In this document: piece after piece, positions 13,773-46,248 of the stretch
How positions within the stretch are numbered: position 1 is the first letter of the stretch
Layout of the letters: each line of letters opens with the position of its first letter
From: an uncultured Candidatus Saccharibacteria bacterium
GTDB lineage: Bacteria > Patescibacteriota > Minisyncoccia > UBA6257
Length of the DNA: 64,000 nucleotides
NCBI GenBank assembly: GCA_964479005.1
Contig: CAYZJA010000001.1
Location: forward strand, 128,001-192,000
Reading direction: 5' to 3'
Notes under the pieces: model-generated
The model's input: only the letters and a program-made list of their open reading frames with translations
Told to the model about the DNA's origin: nothing
Database searches by the model: none
Translations under genes and position numbers: made by a program

Positions 13773-13878
13773 GTTATAAATAATATCCGGCAATTACAAA
13801 AGAAAAAGTTGATAGGATTTAATGGCGAATTAACCGTTCATTTTAAATAAAAGATTAAAAAGTTAAATATATAAAAAA

Positions 13879-16800
13879 ATGAAAAAACAATTTTTCTCTA
13901 AAACATTTTCAATTTTCTTGGCACTTTCTTTTGTACTTTCTAATAGCGCAATGTTAGTGCCATTACAAGCTGAAGCTTGTGAGGAAGAAATATGCGAAGA
14001 CGTTATTGTGGTAAGTAATATAGAAGATAAGGTTTTTGATATTGCAGAAACTCTTCCCGGTGAAGCAGCTGTTCTTGCTTGGGATGATCATCCGGCATGG
14101 ACAGCGTATATTGAAGGCGCAAATTGGATTTGGAAGACAGAATATGTAGAAAATCCTGATCAAGACGAAACATATATATTTAAAAAAGATTTTGATATTG
14201 TTGGCATTCCAGATTCTGCAACATTAAAAGTTGCAACTGATAATTCGTATAGTGTTTGGGTTAACAATGTTTTGATTGGAGAAGTTATAACTGAAGATAA
14301 TCACAGTTCAACAACCCAAGATCAATATAATAATATCGTTGACTTTCATACCGGTTCAAATGAAATTAAATTTGAAGTTAAAAACTGGGCAGGAAATGCG
14401 TCACCGAAATTAAATCCTGCAGGTCTTTTGTATAGACTTGAGATTGTAAGATCTTCTTGTGAACCTCAATGTATACCTCAATCTTCTATAGAAACAGACT
14501 GTACTAATGGTTTAGATGATGACTGCGATGGTTTTATTGATAGTGAAGATTCTGATTGTCAGATGTTAATAATGGCTTCTAAAGTAATTTGTGATAATGA
14601 ATCAGATTTACCTAATTGGGGGACAGGATCTGGAGTTGACTATCCTTCATATAACATTGATCAAAACACAGCTTCGGATTATGTAGCTGAACATTCTGGT
14701 TGTTATTTAGCTTCTAATTGGTTTTTTCAATGGGGACAACAAGGTTCTGATGATTTTGGAAAAGACTTTTATGGAGAAGCTGGCAATGGCTACACTACTT
14801 TTGGGCCAACAAATGAAAATGGAGTAGCTAGTACAACAGTGGATTCTGTTACCGGTAGTTATTTGGAATTAAGGGAAGTTCTGCAGCAAGGTTATATTCC
14901 TTTTACGTATGACCAATCACATAAATCTAATGATAATAATATTTCTGCAGAATTTTATTGCCACAATGATATTCTCAATTATGATAACTGGGATTATATA
15001 AAAAATCCTCAATTAGGAATTACTCATTATTGCGTTGGATTTAATGCATTAATCGAACAAGAAGAACCAGAACCTGTTTGTGGAAATGAAATTATAGAAA
15101 CTGGTGAACAATGTGATCCACCTTCAACCACTGCTCCTAATTCTACTGATGAATATTTCTGTGACCAAAATTGTAATTTAGTTCCTATCTATCATTCTCT
15201 GGATGGTTGTCCAAAAAATCAAATCCTAGAATTTATTCAGTCTTATCAAATTCATTCAACTAGTACGACAGAAGTTATTATTCCTGTGAGTGGTAGCGAT
15301 ACATATAAGTTTGAAGTTAAAGGAACTTTTTATCCTACTCAAAATGGAAAAAATGAGAATTTCCTATCAGATGCCGCCTATACGACTGAAGATGGCTGGG
15401 TTTCAACTTCTACAAAATACGGAATTAAAGGCATACCACCTGATTATGCTGCCCATGCTTTATTAGGTGATTTAGGATTAGGGGCTGGAGTAATTAATTG
15501 GGGAGATTATGATTCTTCTCATGAATATGATTTCTCTTACACAATTCCTTCAGGCGCTACTTCTACTCAATTTGTGATAGGTGATAGATGGGATAATTGG
15601 TTTATACCAGATGATATTAGTTGGAATAATCAAGGCGGAATGAAAGATAATCTTGGAAATTTGACTTTAGATGTTTATGAGTGTAAGCCAATCCAAGCTA
15701 GATGTGATCCTAAGTTAGAATTAGTTATGAATGGCGATTTTGAGAGTCCTGAAGTGACTGATCTAGTAAAAAAATGGGGTATTTTTCCATCAGGGACAAC
15801 CGATTTAGAATGGTTAATTAATTGGAGAGAAATTTGGCCTTCAGCACCAAAAATAGCAAATCTTGAAATTCAGAAAAGTTATTATACTCCAGTAATAGCT
15901 CCTGTAGTTCCTGGAGATCCAGATCAATATGCTGAGTTAGATACTGATTGGCATGGTCCAGGTGGACCTTCTGGTGAACCAGCCTCAGTAGCTATTTCTC
16001 AAGATATTCCAACAATTATAGGGGAAACTTATAGATTAAGTTTTGATTTTTCACCACGACCATATACTGATTTAGAACAGAATCATTTAAAGGGTTTTGT
16101 TGATAGCGCTGAATTATTTGATATTTCTGCTGATGGTTCTGGTTTAACAGATACTTTATGGAATCAATATTCTGATAATTTTGTTGCTACAAGTTCAATA
16201 ACAAACATTAAATTTACTGATTATGGTACACCAGACTCTTTAGGCACTTTCTTAGATAATGTTAGCGTAAGATGTGTTCCTCAGGACGAACCTACTATGT
16301 ATCATTGTAATGAGGAATGGCAATGTATAGCAGATCCTGAAGGTGAATATAATACTGATAATTGTGACAATCAATGTATTAAACCTGGAACATCCACAGT
16401 TACTATTTGTAAATATAATGAACAAGAAGAACCTTTAAGAGGTTGGAAGATGATACTTAAAGGTGATAGGTATGATACAGTGCCTGTTTTTCCAGATGGG
16501 CAAAATTATTCTTCAAATCCTTTGCTATTAGGTGATTACTTAATTCAGGCTTCTGGTCAATATTTATATAGACCAGGAACACCTGGCGCTGAGTATTCTG
16601 ATGCTGGCTATACTAAGAGGAATTGTCCAGGAGATGCTGATTATTTATGCAGTGGAGATTATACCCCATGGTTTAATGTTTTTGATATTATAGGTATTCA
16701 TCAAGGATGGTTGGGGATTATGGTTAATGATAATCTTACTGATTGGGGGTATTTTACTTCTGACCATACTTATACTCTTGGCTATCCTGGTTATAGTGGT

Positions 16801-18201
16801 TCGTTCACTTTTACTATAAAGGATGATGTATATTCAGATAATAGTGGATCATTAACAGTTAAAATCTATAAAGGCTATGTAGGGGAAACTGGAGAAAAAG
16901 GATGTGTTACATTTAATGGTGTTCCTTATGGCGAGTATATAGTTGATGAAGATCTTCAAAGTGGTTGGATAAATCAAGATGGTTTAGGAAATGTTACAGT
17001 AGATGACCTAGAAGAAACATTTGATGTTGTCAATATTCCACCAGAAGGACAGATAGGTTCTTTAACTGTTTGTAAATATAGAGATCACGAACCATTTGGG
17101 GAATACAATACAGGTATTGATACACCTCTAACTTGGGAGATGAGAATTATTGGACCTAATAGTTATGATCAATTGTACGAAACTGATCCTCAGAATGGAT
17201 GCAAAACAATAAATAATTTAGAATATGGCCAATATGTAGTTTCTGAAGAATTGAAGATTGGTTGGGATCAAACTTATCCTCTTGATCCTAATACCCATAC
17301 CATTGATATAAATGGCGGTAATTCTAATCCATCAGTATATTTCTTGAATTATAAAACAATTGATAATGGTGGAACAAAATATGCTTGTAATGCAGAAGGG
17401 CAATGTATAGAAAATGAAGGGGGTAATTATACCACTTCTAATTGTGATGAAGAATGTAGACCATATCCATATACTTGTAATTCATCTACCTCAGAATGTG
17501 TACGTGATGTTCATGGCCAATTTGGTTTATTGCAAGGTTGTGAGGATGCTTGTAGGGTATCTACTCCATTAGGAGGTCAATATGCAATATTGGGAACAGT
17601 TTTGGGTGCTGCTACTGAAAAGGAAGAAGAACCTTGCGGTCTTTATCTTTTGGAATACATAAAGCTTGGAGGTGATAATAATCCTGAGGAAGTGAAGAAA
17701 TTACAATATTTCTTAAATGAATATCTTGGCATTAATTTAGAGATAACAGGAGTTTATAATCAAGCTACTTATCAAGAAGTTATGAGATTCCAGCTTCTTT
17801 TGAACGATGAAATTTTGGCTCCTTGGGTTGAAGTTAATTGTCTTCCATCTAGTAATATAGCTACTGGTTATGTTTATCGAACAACACAATGGAAAATAAA
17901 TATGATTGTTTGTCCAGAATTGAACCTTCCAGTACCGAATTTATATGATGAAACTTGTAAATATATTAGTCTATATCCAGGAGAAGGTGTAGTTGCTGGA
18001 GCAGCTACTTCTACAGTGGGTGGAACTAATGGAACTACCACAACTACCTCAACTACAACTCCTGAAACAATAGGAGATACTACAACAACTGTTCCTCAAG
18101 ATACTGGGGATGAGCAGTCACAAAATTGGATTTGGGTTTTGATTGGACTTTTAGTGATTGGCGGCGCAGCTTATTTGGTTTATCAAACTAGACAAGTATA
18201 A
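13879..18201 (+). CDS. giant (1440 aa) cell-surface protein with C-terminal TM anchor
   Basis: Signal peptide, multiple Cys-rich beta domains, two regions ~70% identical in protein to the 12024 gene product, a Thr-rich stalk (TTTTSTTTPETIGDTTTT), and a C-terminal helix 'WIWVLIGLLVIGGAAYLVY'. Confidence 0.6.
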   Translation: MKKQFFSKTFSIFLALSFVLSNSAMLVPLQAEACEEEICEDVIVVSNIEDKVFDIAETLPGEAAVLAWDDHPAWTAYIEGANWIWKTEYVENPDQDETYIFKKDFDIVGIPDSATLKVATDNSYSVWVNNVLIGEVITEDNHSSTTQDQYNNIVDFHTGSNEIKFEVKNWAGNASPKLNPAGLLYRLEIVRSSCEPQCIPQSSIETDCTNGLDDDCDGFIDSEDSDCQMLIMASKVICDNESDLPNWGTGSGVDYPSYNIDQNTASDYVAEHSGCYLASNWFFQWGQQGSDDFGKDFYGEAGNGYTTFGPTNENGVASTTVDSVTGSYLELREVLQQGYIPFTYDQSHKSNDNNISAEFYCHNDILNYDNWDYIKNPQLGITHYCVGFNALIEQEEPEPVCGNEIIETGEQCDPPSTTAPNSTDEYFCDQNCNLVPIYHSLDGCPKNQILEFIQSYQIHSTSTTEVIIPVSGSDTYKFEVKGTFYPTQNGKNENFLSDAAYTTEDGWVSTSTKYGIKGIPPDYAAHALLGDLGLGAGVINWGDYDSSHEYDFSYTIPSGATSTQFVIGDRWDNWFIPDDISWNNQGGMKDNLGNLTLDVYECKPIQARCDPKLELVMNGDFESPEVTDLVKKWGIFPSGTTDLEWLINWREIWPSAPKIANLEIQKSYYTPVIAPVVPGDPDQYAELDTDWHGPGGPSGEPASVAISQDIPTIIGETYRLSFDFSPRPYTDLEQNHLKGFVDSAELFDISADGSGLTDTLWNQYSDNFVATSSITNIKFTDYGTPDSLGTFLDNVSVRCVPQDEPTMYHCNEEWQCIADPEGEYNTDNCDNQCIKPGTSTVTICKYNEQEEPLRGWKMILKGDRYDTVPVFPDGQNYSSNPLLLGDYLIQASGQYLYRPGTPGAEYSDAGYTKRNCPGDADYLCSGDYTPWFNVFDIIGIHQGWLGIMVNDNLTDWGYFTSDHTYTLGYPGYSGSFTFTIKDDVYSDNSGSLTVKIYKGYVGETGEKGCVTFNGVPYGEYIVDEDLQSGWINQDGLGNVTVDDLEETFDVVNIPPEGQIGSLTVCKYRDHEPFGEYNTGIDTPLTWEMRIIGPNSYDQLYETDPQNGCKTINNLEYGQYVVSEELKIGWDQTYPLDPNTHTIDINGGNSNPSVYFLNYKTIDNGGTKYACNAEGQCIENEGGNYTTSNCDEECRPYPYTCNSSTSECVRDVHGQFGLLQGCEDACRVSTPLGGQYAILGTVLGAATEKEEEPCGLYLLEYIKLGGDNNPEEVKKLQYFLNEYLGINLEITGVYNQATYQEVMRFQLLLNDEILAPWVEVNCLPSSNIATGYVYRTTQWKINMIVCPELNLPVPNLYDETCKYISLYPGEGVVAGAATSTVGGTNGTTTTTSTTTPETIGDTTTTVPQDTGDEQSQNWIWVLIGLLVIGGAAYLVYQTRQV
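16548..16730. repeat. inter-paralog DNA repeat, copy 2
   Basis: Matches 12560-12742. Confidence 0.8.
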
Positions 18202-18373
18202 ATATCAGACAAGATTGAATCAAAAAACAGTGCTGATTTAGCATTTTTTGCGTCAATTTTTAGTAGTTGGACCTAAATATGAAATTTAGGTAGTAAAAAC
18301 TAATAGGTCGATCTTTGGTAAAAACCAAAGTAAAAAAATCAAAAATAACAAATTAAATTAATTAAAAATTAAA

Positions 18374-18889
18374 ATGAAAAAGATATTAATTGGTTTAACG
18401 ATCATTACATTGGCTGCAATGGTTGCTAGTCCTGCTATGGCTTACTACTGGCCAATGCCAATGGAATCCAGTGACGTAACAGTCAATAATGATAGTTACT
18501 CGAGGATTCGCAATAACGTAACAGTTGTTGCTAAAACCGGCGATAACACTGCTAATACTGGCTCGGCAAGTTTCGGTGGTTTGGGTAGTACAATTCAGAC
18601 TGGTAATGCTGTCGCTGAAGCGACAGTAGTAACTGTTGCCAACACAAATTACACCAGAATTAAGGCTCCTTGCACTAATTGCGACGGCGATGTCACTGTT
18701 AACAATGATGATAGTGACGCTTTTGTCAGGAATAGAGTTAGGGTTATTGCCGACACCGGCGATAACACTGCTAATACTGGCTCGGCATGTTTAGGTGGTG
18801 AGGGTAGTTTGATTGTAACAGGCAGTGCATGGGCTGAAGGAAATGTTGTTACTGTTACTAACACTAACATAACCAGAATTCGCAGATAG
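18374..18889 (+). CDS. secreted protein with two tandem ~50-aa repeats
   Basis: Signal peptide. Repeats 'NNVTVVAKTGDNTANTGSASFGGLGSTIQTGNAVAEATVVTVANTNYTRI' and 'NRVRVIADTGDNTANTGSACLGGEGSLIVTGSAWAEGNVVTVTNTNITRI'. Confidence 0.55.
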   Translation: MKKILIGLTIITLAAMVASPAMAYYWPMPMESSDVTVNNDSYSRIRNNVTVVAKTGDNTANTGSASFGGLGSTIQTGNAVAEATVVTVANTNYTRIKAPCTNCDGDVTVNNDDSDAFVRNRVRVIADTGDNTANTGSACLGGEGSLIVTGSAWAEGNVVTVTNTNITRIRR

Positions 18890-18994
18890 TAATTGATTGT
18901 TATGAACAGGAAGGGGGTTCTTTGTCCTCTTCCTTGCATAAGCCCTTAAAAGATTATTTTGAGGGCTTATGCAAGGGATATTAAAAAATCAAAT

Positions 18995-19549
18995 ATGAAA
19001 AATCAAATATCAAAAATTCCGGTTTTAGTTGCTTTTCTGACAATTATTCCGTTAGTTTGCGGGGCTTTTTCCTTTGAAGAACCTTTTGATGATTTTGAAG
19101 AATGGATTTCGGATCTTAGTGATGGAATGAGTAGTACTCATATAATAAATGAAGTTAAGGTTTTAACAAATACTGGCAATAATGTAATTAATGGCGAAAT
19201 AACAGAAGGTGAAGCAAAAAGCCGGATTTTTATTAAAAACGTTATTAATGGAAAAGAAATAGACCCAATTGAGATTGAATCTGATAAAAACGAAATTAAA
19301 GTGGAAAGCCAAATTAAAACAGAAAATGGCAAAGTTATTATTCAGAGAGAAATTCAAATTGATTCTGAAAAAAGCACTGAAAATTATGAGGTTGATTTGG
19401 AAAATTCAGAAACTGAGACAGAAAGTGAAGGAATATTGAAAGACGGTTTAGATTCCTTTCAAGAAGGATGGTTAGATTTTATCGAAGATTTAAGGTCTTT
19501 TTTTGACGATATCTTTAATATTTTTAAATTAAATGCAAGAATCAAATAG
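18995..19549 (+). CDS. secreted acidic protein carrying one copy of the same repeat
   Basis: Start chosen at the ATG at 18995, which gives the signal peptide 'MKNQISKIPVLVAFLTIIPLVCGAF'. 'INEVKVLTNTGNNVINGEITEGEAKSRIFIKN' matches the repeat. Confidence 0.45.
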   Translation: MKNQISKIPVLVAFLTIIPLVCGAFSFEEPFDDFEEWISDLSDGMSSTHIINEVKVLTNTGNNVINGEITEGEAKSRIFIKNVINGKEIDPIEIESDKNEIKVESQIKTENGKVIIQREIQIDSEKSTENYEVDLENSETETESEGILKDGLDSFQEGWLDFIEDLRSFFDDIFNIFKLNARIK

Positions 19550-22163
19550 ATTAAAAAACTTTATTTTAATTCCTTTGCTAATCATAAGTTTGGTAGGTTT
19601 TAATTTTTATCCCTTTTTGGTTTTTGCAGAAGGAGATGGAGTTGTCACCGAAGGAGTAGTAATTGAGAATAATGAAGACACGCAGATTGTTACTGGAGAT
19701 TCTAATACTGAAGTTAATCTTGAAAACACTGTAAATTCTAATCTTACCGAATTAAACGGGGATGATTCTTCAGACGGAGAATCAGAACCTCTTGAGAATT
19801 TAGAATGTGAGGAAATTGATGTTACTACTTCAAGCACTGATGTTGTTTTTAATATTGCCAATGATAATGAGGCAGAAGTAGAGAATAATATCGAGACTGA
19901 GGAAGAAACTGGAGATAATGAAATTGATCAAAGTGAAGGAGATGCCATCATTGACACCGGAGATATAAATTTAGTCGTTGGCGTAGTTAATACAGTCAAC
20001 ACTAATGTTACTGGTTCTGATTTTTCTCAGCTTTTGTTAAACGTTTTTGAAAATTTAGAAGAAGATATTGATTTATCTGACCAATTAATGGGAATTTCTT
20101 CTTTGGAAAATTGTTATTCACCAATGGAATGTTTTGATCTTAATATTGTTAATGATAACCAAGGAAGTATTGAAAATAATATTTTAGTTGATGCATCAAC
20201 TGGCGAAAATACTGCCCAGAGTATTGATGGAGACGCAATCATTAAGACCGGTAACGCTAATGTTGCAGTTAATGCTTTAAATATTCTCAATACCGATATT
20301 ATCGGCTCAAACTGGACTCAGCTTATTATCAATGTATTTGATAATTGGACTGGCGATTTAGTTTTTCCCGGAAAAGGAAAAATGCAAGGATTTTTAAATC
20401 AAAAACCGCGCTCCTGTGAAGGAGATTGTGGAGATACTAATATAGTTAATTCTAATGAAGGCGAGATTGAAAATAAAGTCCATGTTCAGGCTAATACTGG
20501 CGAAAATCAATCTAATGGAAATTCAAGTATTATCCGCACTGGCCAAGCTAATGCTGAAGTTAATCTTTTAAATATTGCCAATACTAATTTATATGATAAG
20601 AATTGGTTTTTTGTAGGAATTAATAATTTTGGCAACTGGAAAGGAAATGTATTTAGTTTGCCTCCTGGTTTGGAAATGTCAGGAGATTCTAATAGTGTTC
20701 AAATTTATAATCTTGAACTAGAAGATGTTAATAATCCAACAGAAGATTTTGATAATAACACCAGTGGTAATTCTTTGAATATAGTCAATGAAAATACCGG
20801 GATTATTAAAAATAATATTATAGTTAATCTTTCGACTGGCGAGAACTCAGCTATTTCTTCTAACGGTCAGACAACGATAGAGACCGGAGATGCCAATACC
20901 CTAACTAACATTGCCAATCTTTTAAATTCAAATATTGTCGGCAGTAATTGGCTTTTGGGAACTGTAAATATTTTAGGAGATTGGAATGGAGATTTGGCTT
21001 TTGGCCGTCCTGATAATTGGATTGGTGGGAGTGTTGCCTCTTCTCATAATCCGGTTTCTCCTGGAGAAACTATAACTTATACTTTGACATATATTAACAA
21101 TGGGGATGCTGATGCTACACAAGTAATGATTATTGATGATTACGATGAGGCGCATCTTTCTATTATAGATACAGGTGGTGGAATTATCATTGATAATCCT
21201 GGCGAGATTCAGTGGGACATTGGAACAATTGCAGTAGGCGGTTCCGGTTCAGTTTCTTATTCTGCTGTAATTGATCCAGAAGTACCTTATGGTACTACCT
21301 ATCTTACTAATCAGGCGACAATTGATAGTTTTGAAGAAGATTTTAATAATGAAGATAACATTGAAATTTTATCAATTGAAGTGTATAGACCTTTGCCAGT
21401 TGCTTCAGTTATGTTGGGTTTTTCTTCTCCCTCGTCTTCGCCAAAATTGGAAATTAGCAAAACTCACAATGTAGATGATTTCGTTTATTCAGGAAGCGAT
21501 GTTGATTTTAAGATAGTGCTATATAATGATAGCGATAGTTCTGCTTATGATGTTGTCGTTTATGATACTTTACGGAACGATGCATCTGAAGCGATCAGTA
21601 CTTCCCATTGGGATTTGGGAGAAGTTTTCCCTCACGAAGAAATAATTATTGACTATACGGCAGCCATAGGTTCTGAGTTTCCAGCCGGCTTTTATACTAA
21701 TATAGCTGAGGCTCTAGGTTTTGATAGCCAGGGAAATCCAGTTAGTTCTCCTGAGGCCTCTAGCACAATTGAGGTTAGGGCGGCAGAAGTTCCTCCTGAT
21801 GAAACAGAGGAAGTGGAGGAAATTTCTCTTGAGGAGATAGAAAAGGAATTAAAAGAAATGAAAGACAAGATAAGAAAAATAAGAGAAGAGATAGAAAGAC
21901 TTTCTCATCCGTCTCCAGTCGAAGAATTTACAAGTTCTCTTCCAAAACAATTAATATCAGAGGTTTTGGCTGCTGAAGAACCTTTTGTTCCCAAAGAAAA
22001 AATTAATTTGCCTGAAAGAGGTTTGGCTCCGTTGCTTTTGGCTAGCTTAAGAGAGATAGGGGGAACGGATTGGATGATGATTTTGGCCATTTTTTGCCTT
22101 ATTGGGTTAATTATAATTGGAATTAGAGAGTGGGAATTAATTCGAAAAAAGAAAAAGAGATAA
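19533..22163 (+). CDS. large surface protein: 4 copies of the ~50-aa repeat + DUF11/CARDB-like domains + C-terminal TM anchor
   Basis: Four 'IENN(I/V)xVxAxTGxNxAxSxxGxAxIxTGxAxxxVNxLNIxNTxxxGSNW' units. 'PGETITYTLTYINNGDADATQVMIIDDYD' is DUF11-like. Coiled-coil 'EEIEKELKEMKDKIRKIREEIERL'. Terminal helix 'WMMILAIFCLIGLIIIGI'. Confidence 0.55.
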   Translation: MQESNRLKNFILIPLLIISLVGFNFYPFLVFAEGDGVVTEGVVIENNEDTQIVTGDSNTEVNLENTVNSNLTELNGDDSSDGESEPLENLECEEIDVTTSSTDVVFNIANDNEAEVENNIETEEETGDNEIDQSEGDAIIDTGDINLVVGVVNTVNTNVTGSDFSQLLLNVFENLEEDIDLSDQLMGISSLENCYSPMECFDLNIVNDNQGSIENNILVDASTGENTAQSIDGDAIIKTGNANVAVNALNILNTDIIGSNWTQLIINVFDNWTGDLVFPGKGKMQGFLNQKPRSCEGDCGDTNIVNSNEGEIENKVHVQANTGENQSNGNSSIIRTGQANAEVNLLNIANTNLYDKNWFFVGINNFGNWKGNVFSLPPGLEMSGDSNSVQIYNLELEDVNNPTEDFDNNTSGNSLNIVNENTGIIKNNIIVNLSTGENSAISSNGQTTIETGDANTLTNIANLLNSNIVGSNWLLGTVNILGDWNGDLAFGRPDNWIGGSVASSHNPVSPGETITYTLTYINNGDADATQVMIIDDYDEAHLSIIDTGGGIIIDNPGEIQWDIGTIAVGGSGSVSYSAVIDPEVPYGTTYLTNQATIDSFEEDFNNEDNIEILSIEVYRPLPVASVMLGFSSPSSSPKLEISKTHNVDDFVYSGSDVDFKIVLYNDSDSSAYDVVVYDTLRNDASEAISTSHWDLGEVFPHEEIIIDYTAAIGSEFPAGFYTNIAEALGFDSQGNPVSSPEASSTIEVRAAEVPPDETEEVEEISLEEIEKELKEMKDKIRKIREEIERLSHPSPVEEFTSSLPKQLISEVLAAEEPFVPKEKINLPERGLAPLLLASLREIGGTDWMMILAIFCLIGLIIIGIREWELIRKKKKR

Positions 22164-24677: not shown

Positions 24678-24726
24678 GTTCTTGACTTCCTTAATAGATT
24701 GGCTATAATTGGATATAGCTAATATA
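24678..24726 (+). promoter_or_regulatory. fic promoter (TTGACT-16-TATAAT) embedded in a 10-bp inverted repeat
   Basis: ATTGGCTATA (24687-24696) and TATAGCCAAT (24717-24726) flank the -10 element and the likely transcription start. Confidence 0.45.
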
Positions 24727-24738
24727 GCCAATAATCAT

Positions 24739-25800
24739 ATGGCAAGAAATAAACAATTTGATCAGAGAATAGAAAATATTCCTACAGAAATTTGGTCAAA
24801 GCTTATACAAATTGATGAATTAAAGGGGCAATGGATTGCCGGCGCTCGGTTGAGCCCACAAGTTTTAAACCACCTTAAGCGGTCTGTTTTGATTACTTCT
24901 ACTGGTGCCTCAACTCGTATTGAGGGAGCTCGGCTTTCTGACGAAGATGTTGAGAAATTAATGCGTGGTATTGATATTCAGAAGTTTACTGACCGTGATA
25001 AGCAGGAAGTAAAGGGATATTTTGAATTACTAGAAAATATTTTTGATTCTTGGAGATCGATTAAGCTTTCAGAAAGCGCTATCAAGCATTTTCACAAAGA
25101 GCTTTTGAAGTATGTAAAAAAGGATGAACTCCACAGAGGTGATTATAAGAAAACCGAGAATAAAGTTGAGATGATTGATGCAGCTGGTAAATCCATCGGA
25201 ACTCTTTTTGACACTACACCGGTATATCTTACCCCGAAAGAAATGCAGGAATTAGTAGAGTGGACCCGAGAATCTTTGGCTGAAAAAAAATCTCATCCAC
25301 TTTTGATTGTTGGTAATTTTCTTGTTGAGTTTTTACAGATTCATCCATTCCAAGATGGCAATGGCCGGCTTAGCCGTGTTCTTACAAATCTTCTTTTATT
25401 GAAAGAGGGATATTTATATATGCCCTATATTTCTCATGAGAAGCTGGTTGAAGACAATAAGCCGGATTACTATATGGCCTTACGCAGAAGTCAAAAGACT
25501 TTTAAGACAGATCACGAAGACATCACTTCGTGGTTGGATTTCTTTTTGACTATTTTATTGAAGCAGTCAAAGATGGCCGTTGAGCTACTCTCAAAAGAGA
25601 ACATTGAAAAACTTCTTTCAATGAAGCAACTTGCTGTTTGGGAGTATTTGCAAAAGGCAAAAGAAACTACTACCGGCGAGATTATCAGAGGAACCAAGAT
25701 TACACGGCCTACTGTAAAACAGGCTCTTAACAAATTATTGCGTCTCAAAAAAATTGAACGCATTGGGCTCGGTAGAAGCACAAGATATAGAAAATTATGA
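24739..25800 (+). CDS. Fic/Doc family protein (putative AMPylase) with C-terminal winged-helix
   Basis: Canonical Fic motif 'HPFQDGNGRLSRVLTNLLL'. The start is moved to 24739 because the track's 24709 start lies inside the promoter -10 region. Confidence 0.85.
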   Translation: MARNKQFDQRIENIPTEIWSKLIQIDELKGQWIAGARLSPQVLNHLKRSVLITSTGASTRIEGARLSDEDVEKLMRGIDIQKFTDRDKQEVKGYFELLENIFDSWRSIKLSESAIKHFHKELLKYVKKDELHRGDYKKTENKVEMIDAAGKSIGTLFDTTPVYLTPKEMQELVEWTRESLAEKKSHPLLIVGNFLVEFLQIHPFQDGNGRLSRVLTNLLLLKEGYLYMPYISHEKLVEDNKPDYYMALRRSQKTFKTDHEDITSWLDFFLTILLKQSKMAVELLSKENIEKLLSMKQLAVWEYLQKAKETTTGEIIRGTKITRPTVKQALNKLLRLKKIERIGLGRSTRYRKL

Positions 25801-25830: not shown

Positions 25831-26847
25831 ATGAGTTTATCAATTGGAATTGTCGGTTTACCTAATGTGGGAAAATCCACTCTTTTTAAACTTTTAACAA
25901 AGCAGGAAGTTAATATTGCTAATTATCCATTTACTACCATTGATCCTAATGTGGCTGTTGTTTCAGTGGCTGATGAGAGATTAGAAAAAATAGCTGAGAT
26001 AAGCAAACCGGAAAAAGTAATTCCTGCCGCAATTGAATTTTTTGATATTGCAGGGTTAGTAAAAGGAGCTAATAAGGGAGAAGGGTTAGGAAATCAATTT
26101 TTAGCCCAGATTCGCGAAACCAATGCTATAGTACAAGTAGTTCGATGTTTTTCTGAAGAAACAGTAGCTCATATAGATGGCAGTATAGATCCTTTAAGAG
26201 ATATTAAAGTAGTTAATACCGAGTTAATCTTAAAAGATTTAGAAACTACAGAAAAGAGAATTAGTAAAATAGAAGGGGAAGCTCATGCTGGAAATAAAGA
26301 CATTGTTAAAGAATTAGAAATATTAAATCAGATAAAAAATTTACTAACAGAAGACAATCTTTTGATAAATTTTTTGAACGAAGAGTTATTAAATAATCCA
26401 GCAGTGAAAGATTTAAATTTTTTAACGGCAAAAAAACAAATCTACTTGTTTAATGGCAGAGACGAGGATACTCCAAAAGAAGTTATTAATTTTATTCAGC
26501 AATTAAAAAGTGAATATATTATTACTGGTTTAGAAACAAATCCTGATTTATTAGAGCTTATTAAAAAAGCCTATCAGGTTTTGGGGCTTATTAGCTTTTT
26601 TACTATTGTAGGTGAAAAAGAGGCGCGCGCTTGGCCTGTAAAAAAAGGTATTAAAGCTCAGGAAGCGGCAGGGATGATTCACAGTGATTTTGCCGATAAA
26701 TTTATTAAAGCTGAAGTTATTGATTGGAAGAAATTATTAGAAGCAGGCAAGTGGAGTGTTGCCCGCCAAAAAGGATGGATTCAATTAGAAGGAAAAGAGT
26801 ATGAGGTACAGGATGGAGATGTTATAATATTTAAACACGGGGGATGA
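25831..26847 (+). CDS. ychF: ribosome-binding ATPase YchF
   Basis: 'IGIVGLPNVGKSTLFKLLT…NYPFTTIDPNV…FFDIAGLVKGANKGEGLGNQFL' and a C-terminal TGS-like region. Confidence 0.9.
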   Translation: MSLSIGIVGLPNVGKSTLFKLLTKQEVNIANYPFTTIDPNVAVVSVADERLEKIAEISKPEKVIPAAIEFFDIAGLVKGANKGEGLGNQFLAQIRETNAIVQVVRCFSEETVAHIDGSIDPLRDIKVVNTELILKDLETTEKRISKIEGEAHAGNKDIVKELEILNQIKNLLTEDNLLINFLNEELLNNPAVKDLNFLTAKKQIYLFNGRDEDTPKEVINFIQQLKSEYIITGLETNPDLLELIKKAYQVLGLISFFTIVGEKEARAWPVKKGIKAQEAAGMIHSDFADKFIKAEVIDWKKLLEAGKWSVARQKGWIQLEGKEYEVQDGDVIIFKHGG

Positions 26848-27104
26848 AAAAGAAATTTATATTTTATGGTCGGGTCCAAGGTATAGGGTTTCGTTTTAGA
26901 GCCGAAATGTTAGCTAAAAAATTTAATATATTTGGTTGGGTGGAGAATAATGATGATGGAGGTGTTACTTTAATAGCAGAAGGGGCAGAAGAAAACATAG
27001 AAAGTTTAATAAATAATTTAAAAGATTATTTTCAAGATAATATTGAAAATATAAAAGAAAGTATAGAAAAAGGCGAGGGGTTAATTGATTTCAAAATAAA
27101 ATGA
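26844..27104 (+). CDS. acyP: acylphosphatase
   Basis: 'FYGRVQGIGFRFRAEMLAKKFNIFGWVENNDDGGVTLIAEG'. Confidence 0.85.
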   Translation: MKKKFIFYGRVQGIGFRFRAEMLAKKFNIFGWVENNDDGGVTLIAEGAEENIESLINNLKDYFQDNIENIKESIEKGEGLIDFKIK

Positions 27105-27451
27105 GTTTTATTAAGCATAAAGAGAGTAAAGAAAGCTTATTTGTTTGGACTAAGCATTCGCAAGCAAAGATGCGTCAATATATGCTTTCTGAAAGTAGAG
27201 TAAAGCGGGTGATAAGAAATCCTAAAAGAGTGGAAGAGGGTATTGCTCCAAAGACTTTAGCTTCAATGCAAAAGGCGGGTTCTAAAAAGCATCCTTATGA
27301 GATTTGGGTAATGTATCAACTTGTTAGTGAGCGAGGCCGTAGAATAAAAGTTATTAGCGCGTGGAAATATCCTGGTACTACTCATCCCGGAGATCCAATT
27401 CCTATTCCACCAGATATTTTTGAGGAAATTATTAAAGACCTTGGAACATAA
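27101..27451 (+). CDS. DUF4258-like small protein
   Basis: 'VWTKHSQAKMRQYMLSESRVKRVIRNPKRVEEG…IWVMYQL…IKVISAWK' fits the DUF4258 pattern. Overlaps both neighbouring genes (ATGA junctions). Confidence 0.35.
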   Translation: MSFIKHKESKESLFVWTKHSQAKMRQYMLSESRVKRVIRNPKRVEEGIAPKTLASMQKAGSKKHPYEIWVMYQLVSERGRRIKVISAWKYPGTTHPGDPIPIPPDIFEEIIKDLGT

Positions 27452-27453
27452 AT

Positions 27454-28164
27454 ATGGAGAAAGAAAAGTTTGAAGATTTAATAAGCCAGTCCTTAAAAAA
27501 ACTTCCTTATCGGTTCTTAAATAAATTAAAAAATATCGCTATTATAGCGCAAGATAAGCCAAGTGAATTCCAGAGACAACAATTAGGTTATTCTTCCGGC
27601 GGCTCTATTTTGGGCTTGTATGAAGGAGTTCCTCAAATTAAAAGGGGATACTATTATAGAGCAGCGCCAGACAAAATAACTTTATTTCAAAAAAACATTG
27701 AAAGAGCGGCAGGTAATAATGAAGAAAGAATTAAGGAAATTGTGCAAGGAACAGTTTGGCACGAAATAGCTCATCATTTTGGAATGAATGAAGAGGAGAT
27801 TCAAAAGCGAGTTCAAGACAATAAACCATTTTCTCGAAAAAATATGATTACTTTTGACCAATTTGAACAATTAGATTTACGCGTAGCTAAAATTTTAAAA
27901 GCGGAAAAAATAGAAGAAGCAGACGAGCTTCTTATTTTGCATATTGACTTGGGTGCAGAAAAAAGGCAATTAGTTGCCGGTATTGCTAAGGATTATTCTT
28001 TAGAGGAATTAGAGGGCAAAAAAATTATTATTGTGGCTAATTTAGAGCCAAAAAAAATAAAGGGTTATATAAGTCAGGGCATGCTTTTAGCAGTTGATTC
28101 TCCGCAAGGGCCCGTTTTATTAGTTCCAGAAGGTGAAGTATCACCTGGTAGTAAAGTAAGATAA
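27454..28164 (+). CDS. fusion of zincin-like HExxH domain and Trbp111/CsaA-type tRNA-binding domain
   Basis: N-terminal 'GTVWHEIAHHFGMNEEEI' is a zincin-like HExxHH motif. C-terminal 'DLRVAKILKAEKIEEADELLILHIDLGAEKRQLVAGIAKDYSLEELEGKKIIIVANLEPKKIKGYISQGMLLAV' matches the tRNA_bind (EMAP/Myf) fold. Confidence 0.6.
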   Translation: MEKEKFEDLISQSLKKLPYRFLNKLKNIAIIAQDKPSEFQRQQLGYSSGGSILGLYEGVPQIKRGYYYRAAPDKITLFQKNIERAAGNNEERIKEIVQGTVWHEIAHHFGMNEEEIQKRVQDNKPFSRKNMITFDQFEQLDLRVAKILKAEKIEEADELLILHIDLGAEKRQLVAGIAKDYSLEELEGKKIIIVANLEPKKIKGYISQGMLLAVDSPQGPVLLVPEGEVSPGSKVR

Positions 28165-28168: not shown

Positions 28169-29017
28169 ATGAAAAAACTATATGTTATCAACAGTTTAGG
28201 TATGAAGGAGCCTTTTTCATGGAGAAAGATTTGTAATGGCGCTGAACGAGTTGGCGCTTCAAAAGCATTAGCAAAAGAAATTGCCACTATTATTGAAAGA
28301 GAAGCATATCCTGGAATAACCACAAAAGAGATTTTTCAACGAGTGGAACAAATTTTATCAAAAGAGTGTCCTCGCGGCAGAATTCGTTTTAGATTAAAAG
28401 AAGCAATGAGACGTTTAGGCCCCAGTGGTTTTCCATTTGAAAAATATGTTGGAGGGATTTTAATGCAATTAGGTTTTTCCATTGAACTTAATCGATATGT
28501 TAAAGGGCAATGTGTTCGTCACGAAATTGATTTTTTAGCCAAAGAGGAAAAATATTTTTTAATTGGAGAATGTAAATATCATAGTTTGCCAGGGGGAAGG
28601 GTGGATTTAAAAGTTGGTTTGATTCATTGTGCCCGTTTTTTAGATTTGAAATCAGGTGATTTTTTTGGAAAGATTAAATCAGAAAAACTAAAAATACGAC
28701 CGATTATTGTCACCAATACTAAATTTACAAGCAAAATAATTAAATATGCTGAGTGTGCTGGCATAGATTTATTAGGATGGAAATATCCAGAGCTGAGAGG
28801 ATTAGAGTATGTGATTGAATCAGAAAGATTTTACCCAATTACTATTCTTCCGTCTTTAACTAATAATTTATTAGAAATATTTTATCAGCAAAAATTAATG
28901 TTGGTTCAGGATTTATTAAAGTTAGATGTAATAAAATTTTCAAAAAAGACAAGAATTCCAGAAAAAAAGATATCTGCCATTAAAAGGGAGGCAGAGATAT
29001 TGTTATTAGAAGAGTAG
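28169..29017 (+). CDS. ATP-cone domain fused to Mrr-type PD-(D/E)xK restriction-endonuclease-like domain
   Basis: N-terminal 'FSWRKICNGAERVGASKALAKEIATIIEREAYPGITTKEIFQRVEQIL' is ATP-cone-like. 'FEKYVGGILMQLGFSIELNRYVKGQCVRHEIDFLAKEEKYFLIGECKYH' resembles the Mrr catalytic core (D…E.K). Confidence 0.5.
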   Translation: MKKLYVINSLGMKEPFSWRKICNGAERVGASKALAKEIATIIEREAYPGITTKEIFQRVEQILSKECPRGRIRFRLKEAMRRLGPSGFPFEKYVGGILMQLGFSIELNRYVKGQCVRHEIDFLAKEEKYFLIGECKYHSLPGGRVDLKVGLIHCARFLDLKSGDFFGKIKSEKLKIRPIIVTNTKFTSKIIKYAECAGIDLLGWKYPELRGLEYVIESERFYPITILPSLTNNLLEIFYQQKLMLVQDLLKLDVIKFSKKTRIPEKKISAIKREAEILLLEE

Positions 29018-29139: not shown

Positions 29140-31548
29140 ATGATAATTATGAAGAAAAAATATATTTTGTGGTTTAAGGAAATAAATATTAAAGATGTTC
29201 CTATTGTTGGCGGGAAAAATGCTTCATTAGGGGAGATGTATAGGAATTTATCAAAAAAAGGAGTAAATATCCCAAATGGTTTTGCTATTTCTGCTCAGTC
29301 ATATTTCTATTTTTTGAAAAAAGGAAAAATAAAAAAAAGAATTCAAGAGATTTTGTCTGAGTTTAATCCGAAGAGCATTAAGAGTCTTCAAGAAACAGGA
29401 AAGAAAATAAGAAAATTAATTTTAGATATACCATTACCAAAAGATTTGGAAAAAGATATTATTAAAAATTATCAAAAGCTTTGCAAGATGTATAAGCAAG
29501 ATGATTTAGATGTGGCAGTTCGTTCTTCTGCCACAGCCGAGGATCTTCCCTCAGCCAGTTTTGCAGGTCAACATGAAACCTATCTTAATGTAAGAGGAGA
29601 AGAAGAATTACTGAAAGCGGTTAAAAACAGTTATGCGTCTTTATTTACAGATAGGGCAATAATGTATCGTGAGGAAAAAGGATTTAAACACATGGATATT
29701 GGGCTTTCCACTGGAGTCCAAAAAATGGTGCGTTCTGATTTAGCATCTTCTGGAGTTATGTTTACTTTAGATACAGAGACAGGATTTGCTAATGTAGTTT
29801 TAATTAATTCTATTTTTGGAATAGGAGAGATGATAGTAAAAGGGTTGATTACTCCTGACGAATTTTATGTTTTTAAACCAACACTTAAACAAGGATATAA
29901 AGCGATTATTAGAAAAGATTTAGGAAGAAAGACAAAAAAATATATTTATAACAAAAAAGCTGGGCTCAAGGAAATTGCGGTTTCTAAAAAAGATCAATTA
30001 AAATTTTCTCTTTCTGATGACGAAATTCTTACTTTGGCAAAATGGGGAATTATTATTGAAGAGCACTACTCAAAAATTCAAAAAAAATGGATGCCTCAGG
30101 ATATAGAATGGGCAAAAGATGGAAAAACAGGCGAATTATTTATTGTTCAATCAAGGCCAGAAACTGTTCATTCAATTGAAACAAATATTTATAAGGAATA
30201 TAAAATAAAAACCGCTAAAAGACCAATTTTAAATGGCATTGCTATTGGTAATAAAATAGGCGCAGGTAAGATTCATATTATAAAAAACGCTTCAAAACTT
30301 TCAGAATTTAAAAAGGGAGAGATTTTAGTCACCAAGATGACTGATCCTGACTGGACTTCAGTTTTCCCTATGGCTTCAGCTATTATTACTGATGAAGGTG
30401 GTAAAACCTGCCATAGCGCAATAATTTCCAGAGAATTAGGCGTGCCTTGTATTGTAGGGACAAGAAACGCGACAAAAATTCTTAAAAATGGACAGGAAGT
30501 AACTGTAGATTGTACTCAAGGCCTTGATGGAAAGATCTTTAATGGAAAAGTTCCTTTTAAAATTAAAGAATATAATTTTAAAAAATTTCCAAAAATAAAG
30601 ACCAAGATCATGATTAATATCGGCGCTCCTGAAATAGCTTTTGCAACATCATTTCTTCCTAATGATGGAGTAGGTTTAGCCAGAGAGGAATTTATTATTG
30701 CGGAGAAAATCAGGATTCATCCGTTGGCGTTATATCACTACAAAAAACTTAAGTCAAAAGAGGTTATTAAAAAGATTGACGAGATGACTGTGGAACATAA
30801 GGATAAGAAAGAATATTTTATAAAAGAATTAGCAGAAGGAATTGCTCAGATAGCTGCTGCTTTTTATCCAAAAGAAGTAATTGTAAGATTTTCTGATTTT
30901 AAAACCAATGAATATCGCAATCTGATTGGAGGAGAACTTTTTGAACAGGAAGATGAAGCCAATCCAATGCTTGGATTCAGGGGTGCTTCAAGGTATTATG
31001 ATGAAAAATTTAAACCAGCTTTTTTGATGGAGTGTGAAGCGATAAAGCGAACTCGCGATGTTTTTGGTTTAAAGAATATTAAAGTAATGATTCCTTTTTG
31101 TCGGACAGTCGATGAGGGAAAAAAAGTGATTGAATTAATGAAAAAGGCAGGTTTACAAAGAGGGAAAGATGGTTTGAAAATTTATGTAATGTGCGAAATT
31201 CCGTCAAATGTAATTTTAGTAGATCGTTTCAGTGAAATTTTTGATTTTTACTCAATTGGGAGCAACGATCTAACACAACTCATATTAGGAGTTGATCGAG
31301 ATAATGCACATTTAACACAAGTTTTTAATGAAAATGATGATGCAGTAAAAAGAGCTATAGAGGAGTTTATTAAAAAAGTTCATCAATATAAAAAGAAAGT
31401 GAGTATTTGTGGTGAAGCTCCAGCGAGCGTTGAAGGATTTGTAGAATTTCTTATTAAGTGTGGGATAGATTCTATTTCAATAAACCCTGGCTCTGTTATA
31501 AAGACGATGCTTTTAGTAAGTAAAATAGAGAAAAAATTACAAAAATGA
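29140..31548 (+). CDS. ppsA: phosphoenolpyruvate synthase (pyruvate, water dikinase)
   Basis: 'VGGKNASLGEM' ATP-grasp start, the PEP-utilizer His site 'GGKTCHSAIISRELGVPCIVG', and a C-terminal PEP/pyruvate-binding TIM domain. About 800 aa. Confidence 0.9.
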   Translation: MIIMKKKYILWFKEINIKDVPIVGGKNASLGEMYRNLSKKGVNIPNGFAISAQSYFYFLKKGKIKKRIQEILSEFNPKSIKSLQETGKKIRKLILDIPLPKDLEKDIIKNYQKLCKMYKQDDLDVAVRSSATAEDLPSASFAGQHETYLNVRGEEELLKAVKNSYASLFTDRAIMYREEKGFKHMDIGLSTGVQKMVRSDLASSGVMFTLDTETGFANVVLINSIFGIGEMIVKGLITPDEFYVFKPTLKQGYKAIIRKDLGRKTKKYIYNKKAGLKEIAVSKKDQLKFSLSDDEILTLAKWGIIIEEHYSKIQKKWMPQDIEWAKDGKTGELFIVQSRPETVHSIETNIYKEYKIKTAKRPILNGIAIGNKIGAGKIHIIKNASKLSEFKKGEILVTKMTDPDWTSVFPMASAIITDEGGKTCHSAIISRELGVPCIVGTRNATKILKNGQEVTVDCTQGLDGKIFNGKVPFKIKEYNFKKFPKIKTKIMINIGAPEIAFATSFLPNDGVGLAREEFIIAEKIRIHPLALYHYKKLKSKEVIKKIDEMTVEHKDKKEYFIKELAEGIAQIAAAFYPKEVIVRFSDFKTNEYRNLIGGELFEQEDEANPMLGFRGASRYYDEKFKPAFLMECEAIKRTRDVFGLKNIKVMIPFCRTVDEGKKVIELMKKAGLQRGKDGLKIYVMCEIPSNVILVDRFSEIFDFYSIGSNDLTQLILGVDRDNAHLTQVFNENDDAVKRAIEEFIKKVHQYKKKVSICGEAPASVEGFVEFLIKCGIDSISINPGSVIKTMLLVSKIEKKLQK

Positions 31549-32990
31549 GACACTTTCATTTAATAGATTTACCTTCGGATTTAGTTTTTGTTTATTTAGA
31601 AGATGAATTTCGGAAACAATTTTTGGAAACAGCCAGGCAAGCTTTTAGAAGTTTTAAAAAATTAGGAGAGTTTGTTGGTTATACAAGGACAGGGATTATA
31701 GAAACTTTTAGAGTTAAAAATAGATTTACAAAATTATCAACCGTAATAAAATTAGCAAATTTTCTTTCTCGAGAAGGGTTTCAAGGCTTTAGCCTTAATG
31801 AAGTGGAAAAGAAAATCATTGCTTATCGAGGAATTGGAACGAGTTTAATTATCAAAAATTCATATTTTTCTCTGAAAGAAGATGAAAGAATGATTAGAAT
31901 ATTTTTTCATTTATTAGGTGATGGATATGGTGGAAAATATGGTGCAGGTAAACCTTTTTATCGAAACTACGCGAAAGAATTGTTGAATGAATTTGGGGAA
32001 GATTTGAAAGTTTTTGGAAGAGTTCCTTATATAAAAAGAGAAACAATTGTTGAAATTCCTAGTGTTATAGGTTATATCCTTGAACATATTTATAAGATTA
32101 ATTTTGAAAGCCATAAATCATTTATTCCGTTGGTTATTTATAAACTTCCAAAAAAGATTATAGCTCAAGGCATAAAAGCGTTTGCAGACGATGAAGCAAA
32201 TATAGAAGATTCCAGGATTAGATTTTATTCTTCTAACAAAAGATTGCTTTCCGGAATAAAAAGTTTAATGATTAAGAAATTTCCTGAATTTTCTGGTAAA
32301 ATTGGCGAAATTAAAAAAAGCAAAAATTATCTAAGAGGAAGAGAATATATTAACTATTCTTTTTCGATTTTTTCAGGTGGACTTCAAGCATACTATAATT
32401 TAATTGGCTTTTCGCATTATGAGAAAGCGAGGATTTTAAAAAGAATTATTGAGAGAAAGGGGAGGGTATGGAAAAGAAGGAATAAAGATATTACGAAATT
32501 ATTAATACTACAAATTTTAAGGAACAAGAATAAAATGATAAAAGAAATTTCTAGTGAGATTGGTATTACTACAAGCATTACAAGATGTCATCTTGAAGGG
32601 AACAGTACTACGGGAATATTATCCTTGAAAAAGATGGGTTATGTTAAAGATATGGGTTTTAGTAGAACGAAAGCTAAAATTTGGGGCATTACTGACAAAG
32701 GAATAAATTTCTTGAGAGAAAACGTACATAAGTTAAATAAATTTTCAATCGAAGGAAATATTTCCAAGTTCTATTTAAAAATAGTTAGAAGATTCTCATT
32801 AGTTATGCCTTCCTACATAGCTAAACTGCCTTCCTACATAGCTAAACAAAGAAGTTGCAGAAATGATACAGCGAGTAAGCAACTATTGAAATTATATAGA
32901 AGTAATTATTTAAAAAGGAATAGATGCTCTAAAGAAGAATATAGCTATACATTAACCAATAAAGGGATTAAATTTTTAGTAAGTGGGTAG
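31545..32990 (+). CDS. hypothetical protein with degenerate LAGLIDADG-like motifs and C-terminal winged-HTH
   Basis: Motif 1 is 'RIFFHLLGDGYGG' and motif 2 'GIKAFADDEANI' (~120 aa later). A wHTH-like 'ILQILRNKNKMIKEISSEIGITTSITRCHLEG' follows. The start overlaps the ppsA stop (ATGA). Confidence 0.3.
   Translation: MRHFHLIDLPSDLVFVYLEDEFRKQFLETARQAFRSFKKLGEFVGYTRTGIIETFRVKNRFTKLSTVIKLANFLSREGFQGFSLNEVEKKIIAYRGIGTSLIIKNSYFSLKEDERMIRIFFHLLGDGYGGKYGAGKPFYRNYAKELLNEFGEDLKVFGRVPYIKRETIVEIPSVIGYILEHIYKINFESHKSFIPLVIYKLPKKIIAQGIKAFADDEANIEDSRIRFYSSNKRLLSGIKSLMIKKFPEFSGKIGEIKKSKNYLRGREYINYSFSIFSGGLQAYYNLIGFSHYEKARILKRIIERKGRVWKRRNKDITKLLILQILRNKNKMIKEISSEIGITTSITRCHLEGNSTTGILSLKKMGYVKDMGFSRTKAKIWGITDKGINFLRENVHKLNKFSIEGNISKFYLKIVRRFSLVMPSYIAKLPSYIAKQRSCRNDTASKQLLKLYRSNYLKRNRCSKEEYSYTLTNKGIKFLVSG
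32807..32848 (+). repeat. tandem 21-bp duplication inside CDS
   Basis: gccttcctacatagctaaac ×2, encoding PSYIAKL-PSYIAKQ. Confidence 0.8.
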
Positions 32991-39531: not shown

Positions 39532-39620
39532 CTATTAAATCGTCAATTAATTGATGATTTTTTTATTTTAAAAATAAATTGTGGTATAATTATTTAATAA
39601 TATTAAAATGTTATAAAAAG

Positions 39621-43244: not shown

Positions 43245-43337
43245 AGTGAAAGTGCTTGTCCATAAATATTGACATTGTTTTCTAAATAAATTATATGTTA
43301 TAATAAATAAACAAAACTATGACTAATTCCATATCTT

Positions 43338-43391
<54 letters not shown>

Positions 43392-43396
43392 ATCGC

Positions 43397-46227: not shown

Positions 46228-46248
46228 TTTGAAGTCGAGAAAAGTATA

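Follow-up and report, generated by a model that had tools for sequence, protein, structure and literature searches.

Does the union of a metallohydrolase-like domain with a tRNA-binding domain in one polypeptide mean that the two work together, and, if so, on what? The question is raised by a 236-residue protein encoded at positions 27454–28164 on the forward strand of the window, the whole 64,000-nucleotide stretch of contig CAYZJA010000001.1 analyzed here. Its N-terminal half is a mini-zincin of the Zincin_1 family (PF06262; DUF1025, provisional MEROPS M94), followed by a linker and a tRNA_bind domain (PF01588) with an oligonucleotide/oligosaccharide-binding (OB) fold of the type found in Trbp111 and at the C terminus of methionyl-tRNA synthetase (MetRS). 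Open reading frame (ORF) calls, Pfam, NCBIfam, homologous clusters and an AlphaFold2 (AF2) model describe the same architecture, and the two-domain fusion is real. The protein lacks a signal peptide and is therefore cytoplasmic. The best reading, to which we assign a probability of roughly 0.45, is that the protein forms a mini-zincin dimer with a tether to tRNA or RNA.

Architecture of the fusion protein

The Zincin_1 domain (residues 25–118; 27526–27807, forward strand) is recognized by Pfam at 76 bits against a cutoff of 22.4 (E = 2e-21). The match spans positions 1–94 of the 97-position profile, and the zincin fold begins at about residue 1. By sequence the N-terminal half matches the mini-zincin Acel_2062 (3e11; E = 1.6e-13), a member of a family represented by a crystal structure since 2008, and Foldseek superimposes the two with a template-modeling (TM) score of 0.72, normalized to the target; it also matches 2ejq with the zincin half of the AF2 model. 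In that model, predicted strands at residues 28–33, 54–57 and 73–78 and a helix at 90–108 make up the minimal zincin fold. The first-pass annotation, which had worked from the letters alone and proposed a zincin-type module joined to a tRNA-binding OB domain, allowed that the N-terminal half might match no zincin fold; the profile, sequence and structural matches dispose of that doubt.

The metal-binding and catalytic motif, quoted in that annotation as HExxHH, reads H103-E104-I-A-H107-H-F-G-M-N-E113 (HEIAHHFGMNE; 27760–27792, forward strand; codons CAC GAA ATA GCT CAT CAT TTT GGA ATG AAT GAA) and is retained in 59 of the 61 clusters of fusion proteins described below. All 14 residues that are invariant in the family are present (F6, N27, G54, L55, Y56, G58, P60, P72, D73, F78, H103, E104, H107 and G110). 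The published family pattern is HEXXHXXGXXD (PMC3890501), with Asp as the third metal ligand, whereas the fusion has Glu at this position. This is a conservative variant, and Glu occupies position 11 of the motif in 81 of 83 close free-standing homologues (Asp in two). By profile, motif and minimal fold the fusion thus belongs to Zincin_1/M94: it shares with Acel_2062 the minimal scaffold, a HExxHxxGxx(D/E) motif and a Pfam match above threshold, and differs from it in the third ligand and in the attached tRNA_bind domain.

The OB domain (residues 142–234; 27877–28155, forward strand) scores 94 bits against PF01588 (cutoff 27, E = 6e-27) and 132.3 bits against the NCBIfam model TIGR00399 (metG_C_term; cutoff 116.65). 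A sequence search of solved structures finds Trbp111 from Aquifex (8vtz/1pyb) and MetRS C-domains (1mkh) at E ~1e-26. With Foldseek, 8vtz, 1pyb, 1mkh and 5h34 superimpose with target-normalized TM scores of 0.87–0.92, a root-mean-square deviation of 1.3–2.2 Å and 40–50% identity. Together with YgjH from Escherichia coli (3ers), the Trbp111 of Aquifex aeolicus (1pyb, 8vtz) is the closest known system for this half; the C-terminal 106 residues share its fold (~50% identity, TM 0.87–0.89), and the length of the domain is that of the free-standing protein. Trbp111, however, is a stand-alone homodimer of 111 residues, whereas the OB domain here carries a 130-residue mini-zincin at its N terminus. 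The C-terminal domain of MetRS (1mkh, 5h34, 1rqg; TM 0.89–0.92, above the TIGR00399 cutoff) is likewise an OB domain that an enzyme carries in cis, but in the fusion the partner is not an aminoacyl-tRNA synthetase, and the domain follows a zincin rather than an anticodon-binding domain. Because of the ~50% identity to Trbp111, we infer that this half dimerizes and binds tRNA in a structure-specific manner, as Trbp111 does.

The solved structures matched by the OB domain also include chains of MetRS, PheRS-beta, TyrRS, LysRS and p43/Arc1p, and to our knowledge every characterized in-cis use among these chains gives a tRNA enzyme or cofactor added capacity to bind tRNA. In the chimeras 7d8r and 7d8s the OB domain serves as a dimerization module. 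Proteins in which an OB domain is preceded by an N-terminal extension are mostly pieces of MetRS.

Between the two domains lies a flexible linker of ~20 residues (residues 119–141; 27808–27876, forward strand) with a predicted local distance difference test (pLDDT) score below 50 at residues 123–129. Conservation, measured as amino-acid identity per domain, is about equal for the two domains (mean pairwise identity among the fusion clade 0.77 for the N-terminal and 0.79 for the C-terminal domain) and lower for the linker (0.62), whose residues are nonetheless partly conserved across the fusion clusters. The relatives represented by DNA sequence are 55–68% identical as proteins, a divergence at which synonymous sites would be saturated. 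The AF2 model, built on 99 sequences, shows two well-folded domains with a mean pLDDT of 83.6.

Distribution of the fusion

In a search of 5.8 billion clustered proteins, both PF06262 and PF01588 were found in 61 clusters at 90% identity; these share 55–93% identity with the window protein, and almost all have 236 residues. Their source assemblies come from NCBI, JGI, ENA and Logan, and the exact window protein is present on contigs of up to 551 kb. Among 1.84 billion representatives at 50% identity, a HMMER scan returned one full-length fusion and two fragments, and a local hidden Markov model check of the best 150 hits found the two domains together in no other protein. At this search depth the fusion is restricted to a single 50%-identity cluster from Paceibacterota, within the Candidate Phyla Radiation (CPR), which answers the call of the first-pass annotation for a phylogenetic survey and bears out its view that the architecture is unusual. 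Consistent with this, a 2014 survey of DUF1025 architectures lists the single domain, combinations with TPR and a combination with transmembrane and septum-formation domains, none with tRNA_bind (PMC3890501). Our literature search found no paper linking Zincin_1, DUF1025 or mini-zincins to tRNA, and none describing the fusion architecture.

The close protein relatives all come from metagenome-assembled genomes (MAGs) assigned to ‘Candidatus Paceibacterota/Pacebacteria’. The fusion is a new domain architecture made of two known domains within one Paceibacteria lineage, and one that is evolutionarily reversible, as seen at the locus itself.

Origin at a single syntenic slot

The fusion gene lies in a block with the order YchF, acylphosphatase, 116-residue ORF, fusion, AF1548-like protein, (PolX), phosphoenolpyruvate (PEP) synthase and enolase, which is kept in three other fusion loci (L001, L004 and L005) and persists in fusion carriers down to 55% identity. 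The 282-residue AF1548-like protein (28169–29017, forward strand) is encoded in the same slot in L001, L004, L005, L012 and L097, and its gene serves as the synteny anchor, standing directly 3′ of zincin-only, fused and OB-only genes alike. The slot upstream of it thus exists in three states: zincin alone (L097), fusion (the window, L001, L004 and L005) and OB alone (L012). In L097 the closest free-standing Zincin_1 protein, 137 residues long with a basic tail, is encoded directly upstream of the AF1548-like protein and PolX, with no OB domain. L012 has the order acylphosphatase, 116-residue homologue, 315 bp of non-coding DNA, a 106-residue tRNA_bind protein, AF1548-like protein, PolX and PEP synthase, and neither tblastn nor three-frame translation finds a zincin remnant in the 315-bp spacer. 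At a more distant locus, L095, YchF is followed by the 116-residue homologue and then, 2 kb downstream, by a stand-alone Zincin_1 gene.

The placement of L012 comes from five flanking or shared proteins, compared pairwise by identity. L012 is closer to L005 (PEP synthase 88%, AF1548-like protein 83% identity) than to the window and L001 (63–67% and 47–54%, respectively), and is therefore nested among the fusion carriers and lost its zincin half secondarily. The distances of L097 to both subclades are similar; because it has the typical basic tail, its zincin-only arrangement is better taken as the ancestral state than as a second loss. The L012 spacer (L012:950–1263) contains 7-nt tandem repeats, TATCTTG-like (~9 copies at 954–1018) and ATACGSR-like (~7 copies at 1087–1135), a third repeat pair, flanking 21-nt inverted repeats and a 66-residue minus-strand ORF called by the source. 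This repeat spacer may be the scar or the agent of the zincin deletion.

The two halves also have separate closest relatives. For the N-terminal half these are stand-alone Zincin_1 proteins of ~130 residues (50–59% identity), and for the C-terminal half stand-alone 106-residue tRNA_bind proteins of Parcubacteria (57–70% identity), where a Trbp111-like gene of about this length is common; by synteny, the OB domain is orthologous to these free-standing proteins. The simplest history is that, in one lineage, the 3′ end of a resident Zincin_1 gene was joined to the Parcubacterial Trbp111-like gene, and that the fusion was later reversed at least once, to the OB-only state.

A basic tail in the place of the OB domain

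Free-standing mini-zincins of the CPR carry a Lys/Arg-rich tail after the third metal ligand, with a median length of 17 residues and a net charge of +4 (at least +2 in 90%), on a catalytic body with a net charge of −2. In homologues from other phyla the tail is short and neutral. The basic tail is probably a generic nucleic-acid-binding anchor. In the fusion its place is taken by the linker and the OB domain, and since the OB domain is located exactly at the position of the tail, it looks like a replacement for that anchor, which suggests functional substitution rather than random juxtaposition.

Neighborhoods of the two families elsewhere

Further context was sought in 83 Zincin_1 loci from many phyla (80 from GTDB and three from the CPR; the fusion lineage is not among the GTDB matches listed), in which ORFs were called and the three neighbors on either side clustered. 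No conserved neighbor emerged, the largest neighbor family being present in 5 of the 83 loci, and none of the 83 has a tRNA_bind gene within 5 kb of Zincin_1. The recurrent neighbors are class I aminoacyl-tRNA synthetases, TypA-like GTPases, response regulators and ABC ATPases, and look like a reflection of lineage synteny.

In one Paceibacteria-type MAG (L010:3983–5875) a stand-alone Zincin_1 gene and the end of a UvrD-like helicase gene overlap, and genes for Met-tRNA formyltransferase and elongation factor P (EF-P) come directly after the Zincin_1 gene. As a general link this adjacency was rejected, as it is a single case that does not recur in the 83 loci. At another locus, L014, a stand-alone OB gene adjoins those for methionine aminopeptidase and EF-P. 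The 64-kb window contains no MetRS, pth, def, fmt or map gene; for MetRS, the window has neither a KMSKS motif nor a Pfam match, and the fusion loci L001, L004 and L005 have none either.

Possible functions of the fusion protein

Two genes that otherwise stand alone, a resident mini-zincin and a Trbp111-like gene, fused in place. According to the tethering model, the OB domain would dimerize, as Trbp111 and the MetRS C-domain do, and bind the tRNA elbow without sequence specificity, providing a stronger and structure-specific substitute for the basic tail. Two mini-zincin active sites, each with zinc bound by H103, H107 and E113 and with E104 as the catalytic residue, would thereby be held beside tRNA or the tRNA-loaded translation machinery, where the zincin would cleave an amide or ester bond. 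Candidate substrates would be blocked aminoacyl- or peptidyl-tRNA and nascent or RNA-bound proteins. The OB domain probably retains a Trbp111-type role of its own, as a tRNA chaperone or cofactor, which would explain why it survived alone after zincin loss. The integrity of both domains and their roughly equal conservation within the clade support this model, and a hydrolase targeted to tRNA, as raised in the first-pass annotation, is plausible. By analogy, the DNA-dependent proteases SprT, Wss1 and SPRTN and the metal-dependent RNase YbeY also combine a small metal-hydrolase domain, HExxH-type or related, with a nucleic-acid-binding element that delivers it to where it acts. Here, however, a sequence relationship to them is undetectable, Pfam gives only Zincin_1, and the nucleic acid would be tRNA.

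Several observations weigh against this model. For no mini-zincin is an enzymatic activity known (PMC3890501). The fusion is restricted to one narrow lineage, each half is able to stand alone (OB only in L012, zincin only in L097), and L012 discarded the zincin half secondarily. Neither a conserved Zincin_1 neighbor nor a nearby tRNA_bind gene turned up in the 83 loci. Single 50%-identity representatives also join the tRNA_bind domain to NUDIX, HSP20, Desulfoferrodoxin_N and DUF5652, and therefore a fusion alone does not establish coupling. The basic tail might also have a ligand other than RNA. Finally, the predicted template-modeling score of the AF2 model is 0.48, which means that the interdomain orientation is not fixed and no interface is predicted; the domains are arranged like beads on a string, separated by the disordered stretch at residues 123–129.

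Many of the same observations would follow if the fusion were functionally uncoupled, that is, if two unrelated housekeeping genes, one for a mini-zincin and one for the Parcubacterial Trbp111-like tRNA chaperone, became adjacent in a very compact genome, the intervening stop codon was lost and each half kept its own job, with no guidance of the hydrolase by tRNA binding. We regard this as a serious contender, though on balance doubtful. It accounts for the single narrow lineage, the three states at one syntenic slot (with the OB-only state arising by secondary loss), the absence of a neighborhood link between the families elsewhere, the flexible linker without a predicted interface and the other fusions of the OB domain. 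The genes at the locus are spaced by −4 to +4 nt, and accidental read-through fusions would therefore be easy. On the other side, the fusion persists, nearly always at 236 residues and with a partly conserved linker, down to 55% identity. The characterized in-cis uses of the OB domain, as far as we know them, all serve tRNA binding by the partner, and here it stands in for the basic tail, probably a nucleic-acid binder, of the free-standing orthologues. Should the halves prove uncoupled, the protein would simply illustrate how genes fuse and split in compact genomes.

A broader proposal extends the tethering model to the whole family, treating the fusion as a ‘Rosetta stone’. Mini-zincins in general (M94/DUF1025), which are widespread in the CPR, Chloroflexota, Actinobacteria and other groups, would then be translation-associated hydrolases acting on tRNA-borne groups or on nascent chains at the ribosome. 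We think this unlikely. Docking in this scheme would be by the basic tail in most CPR bacteria and by a full Trbp111 domain in the fusion lineage, with blocked aminoacyl- or peptidyl-tRNA as possible substrates. The fusion is the first, but weak, contextual hint that mini-zincins, a family retained even in the tiny genomes of the CPR, work near tRNA, and we found no other contextual clue. If mini-zincins do prove to be tRNA-docked hydrolases, they would form a new class of tRNA-tethered metallohydrolase.

The database names suggest another role. NCBI and JGI records call the fusion ‘methionine--tRNA ligase subunit beta’ (MCK4805705.1, HZI95823.1 and MDD3491378.1) and leave the zincin half unmentioned; the free-standing 106-residue Parcubacterial proteins are likewise named by profile hit alone. 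The Trbp111 structures 1pyb and 8vtz have also been deposited as ‘MetRS beta subunit’. Taken at face value, the OB domain would complement in trans a MetRS that lacks its C-domain, with the zincin as an accessory or regulatory element, for example in a Met-tRNA or N-terminal Met pathway. The TIGR00399 score above cutoff and the names themselves speak for such a role, as do the position of the L010 Zincin_1 gene directly upstream of Met-tRNA formyltransferase and EF-P and that of the L014 OB gene beside methionine aminopeptidase and EF-P. We nonetheless consider it improbable. TIGR00399 detects a domain, not a role, and the rule attached to it reserves the beta-subunit name for cases where MetRS is a separate protein that the model does not match. 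The best structural match, Aquifex Trbp111, binds tRNAs generally, and the adjacencies to fmt and to map each occur once and do not recur in the 83 loci. The name is an unverified transfer and misleading, and amounts to a systematic mis-annotation.

That the protein is a chaperone-protease of the CsaA type, with the OB domain binding unfolded peptides and feeding them to the zincin, is still harder to credit. CsaA has been reported to bind peptides, 2q2h being a CsaA–peptide fusion, and the CsaA structures are significant fold matches to the OB half (TM 0.85–0.89, E = 1e-8 to 1e-12). Although CsaA (2nzh, 1gd7) has the OB fold in common with the fusion, identity to it is only 28–37%, compared with 40–50% to Trbp111 and MetRS C-domains, and the CsaA model TIGR02222 gives 60.5 bits, far under its cutoff of 119.65, against 132 bits for the Trbp111/MetRS-C models.

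The upstream 116-residue gene

Immediately upstream of the fusion gene is a 116-residue ORF (27101–27451, forward strand) whose product has a RelE/BrnT-type (BECR) fold. It had been described as DUF4258-like, as overlapping the fusion gene and as a possible partner in a toxin–antitoxin-like pair. The first description stands in part: with the fold goes a remote similarity to DUF4258 (PF14076), but the score of 19.5 bits is below the Pfam cutoff of 25. Among 63 homologues, 18 reach E ≤ 0.01 against DUF4258 (best 2.6e-5), and the protein is at most a remote relative. The supposed overlap with the fusion gene is in fact a 2-nt gap (TAA AT ATG), and the 4-nt overlap is with the acylphosphatase gene.

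Regarding a toxin–antitoxin pair, the 116-residue protein would be a BECR-fold RNase toxin, maybe a tRNase like colicins E5 and D, and the zincin–OB protein its antidote or regulator. DUF4258 has been classed within the RelE/ParE superfamily and the colicin-like branch (PMC11980606; bioRxiv 10.64898/2026.08.28.747851). In addition, the 2-nt gap suggests translational coupling, and the adjacency is kept in L001, L004 and L005 and, with the OB gene alone, in L012. The remaining evidence makes such a module very unlikely. The family is highly conserved, with 27 invariant positions in 63 sequences, and its 334 homologues are found in Parcubacteria-type records only; in more distant genomes (L095 and L096) the gene follows YchF or an RNA recognition motif protein. 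In the window, L001, L004 and L005 the fusion lies on its 3′ side; in L012 the OB gene takes that place, in L095 an unrelated hypothetical gene and in L096 a convergent one. Across these loci no adjacent cognate partner is conserved; the downstream gene changes outside the fusion clade, and within the clade the whole block is syntenic. A small DNA-binding partner is absent, and Zincin_1 and tRNA_bind are housekeeping-like families that are not known as antitoxins. In contrast to BrnT (3u97) and other toxins of the DUF4258 and RelE/ParE superfamily, the gene scores below the Pfam cutoff, occurs in Parcubacteria only, follows YchF within a housekeeping block and lacks a conserved antitoxin-like partner. 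The gene belongs to the syntenic block, and a partnership with the fusion is not demonstrable. The BECR-fold homologues at 27101–27451 of the window, L095:4001–4357 and L096:4001–4345 may represent a domesticated RNase-fold family.

The weakest alternative, an artefact of ORF calling or assembly in which a frameshift or chimera joined two genes, finds no support and is already refuted by the in-frame junction in the window, the 61 independent clusters of like architecture and nearly constant length from several assembly sources, the conserved linker residues and the occurrence of the gene on contigs of up to 551 kb.

The gene block and other features of the window

The window has a G+C content of 32%. 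By Pfam annotation, cross-checked in L001, it encodes ribosomal proteins L10 and L7/L12, MnmA, IscU/NifS, SecDF, DnaG, RpoD, Ddl, a Mur ligase, YchF, EF-P, PEP synthase and enolase, and with this core housekeeping content it is an ordinary CPR bacterial chromosome. YchF, the acylphosphatase, the 116-residue ORF, the fusion and the 282-residue protein form a packed array on the forward strand, with spacings of −4, −4, +2 and +4 nt in that order. The YchF gene (25831–26847, forward strand; a ribosome-associated ATPase/GTPase with MMR_HSR1 and YchF-GTPase_C domains) is the first conserved member of the block and is syntenic in L001, L004, L005 and L095. The 86-residue acylphosphatase (26844–27104, forward strand; PF00708, 63 bits) is syntenic in L001, L004, L005 and L012, and its gene overlaps each neighbor by 4 nt. 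The 282-residue protein at the other end has, by Pfam, a weak N-terminal ATP-cone and a helix-hairpin-helix AF1548-like_C end; its central segment, EIDF...GECKY, looks by eye like a PD-(D/E)XK nuclease core.

The block differs from its counterparts in L001, L004 and L005 at two points. Just upstream of YchF lies a gene for a Fic/DOC-domain protein with a C-terminal winged helix (24682–25800), which is not at that position in the other three loci. It is preceded by the sole near-consensus sigma-70-like promoter of the region (TTGACT-16-TATAAT, 24682–24709), the only strong promoter-like site returned by the promoter and terminator scan. Between PEP synthase and enolase, which are adjacent in the other three, the window has a 481-residue ORF without a Pfam match (31545–32990).

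Elsewhere in the window, a helix-turn-helix (HTH_3) protein of the SocA/Panacea antitoxin type (271–1047) precedes two small ORFs that match nothing in Pfam (1031–1366 and 1376–1843), and the segment 271–1843 may be a Panacea-type toxin–antitoxin module. Very large predicted surface-type proteins (582, 1440, 876, 1221, 578 and 617 residues) are encoded at 12024–22163 and 39579–49929; they match SpaA, DUF642, DUF11, Big or dockerin domains weakly or not at all. Positions 54660–56210 encode a TrwB/VirD4-like type IV coupling-protein ATPase that bears a treble-clef zinc finger; its gene is flanked by genes for a sigma-70-region-4/HARE-HTH protein and a D-Ala-D-Ala ligase.

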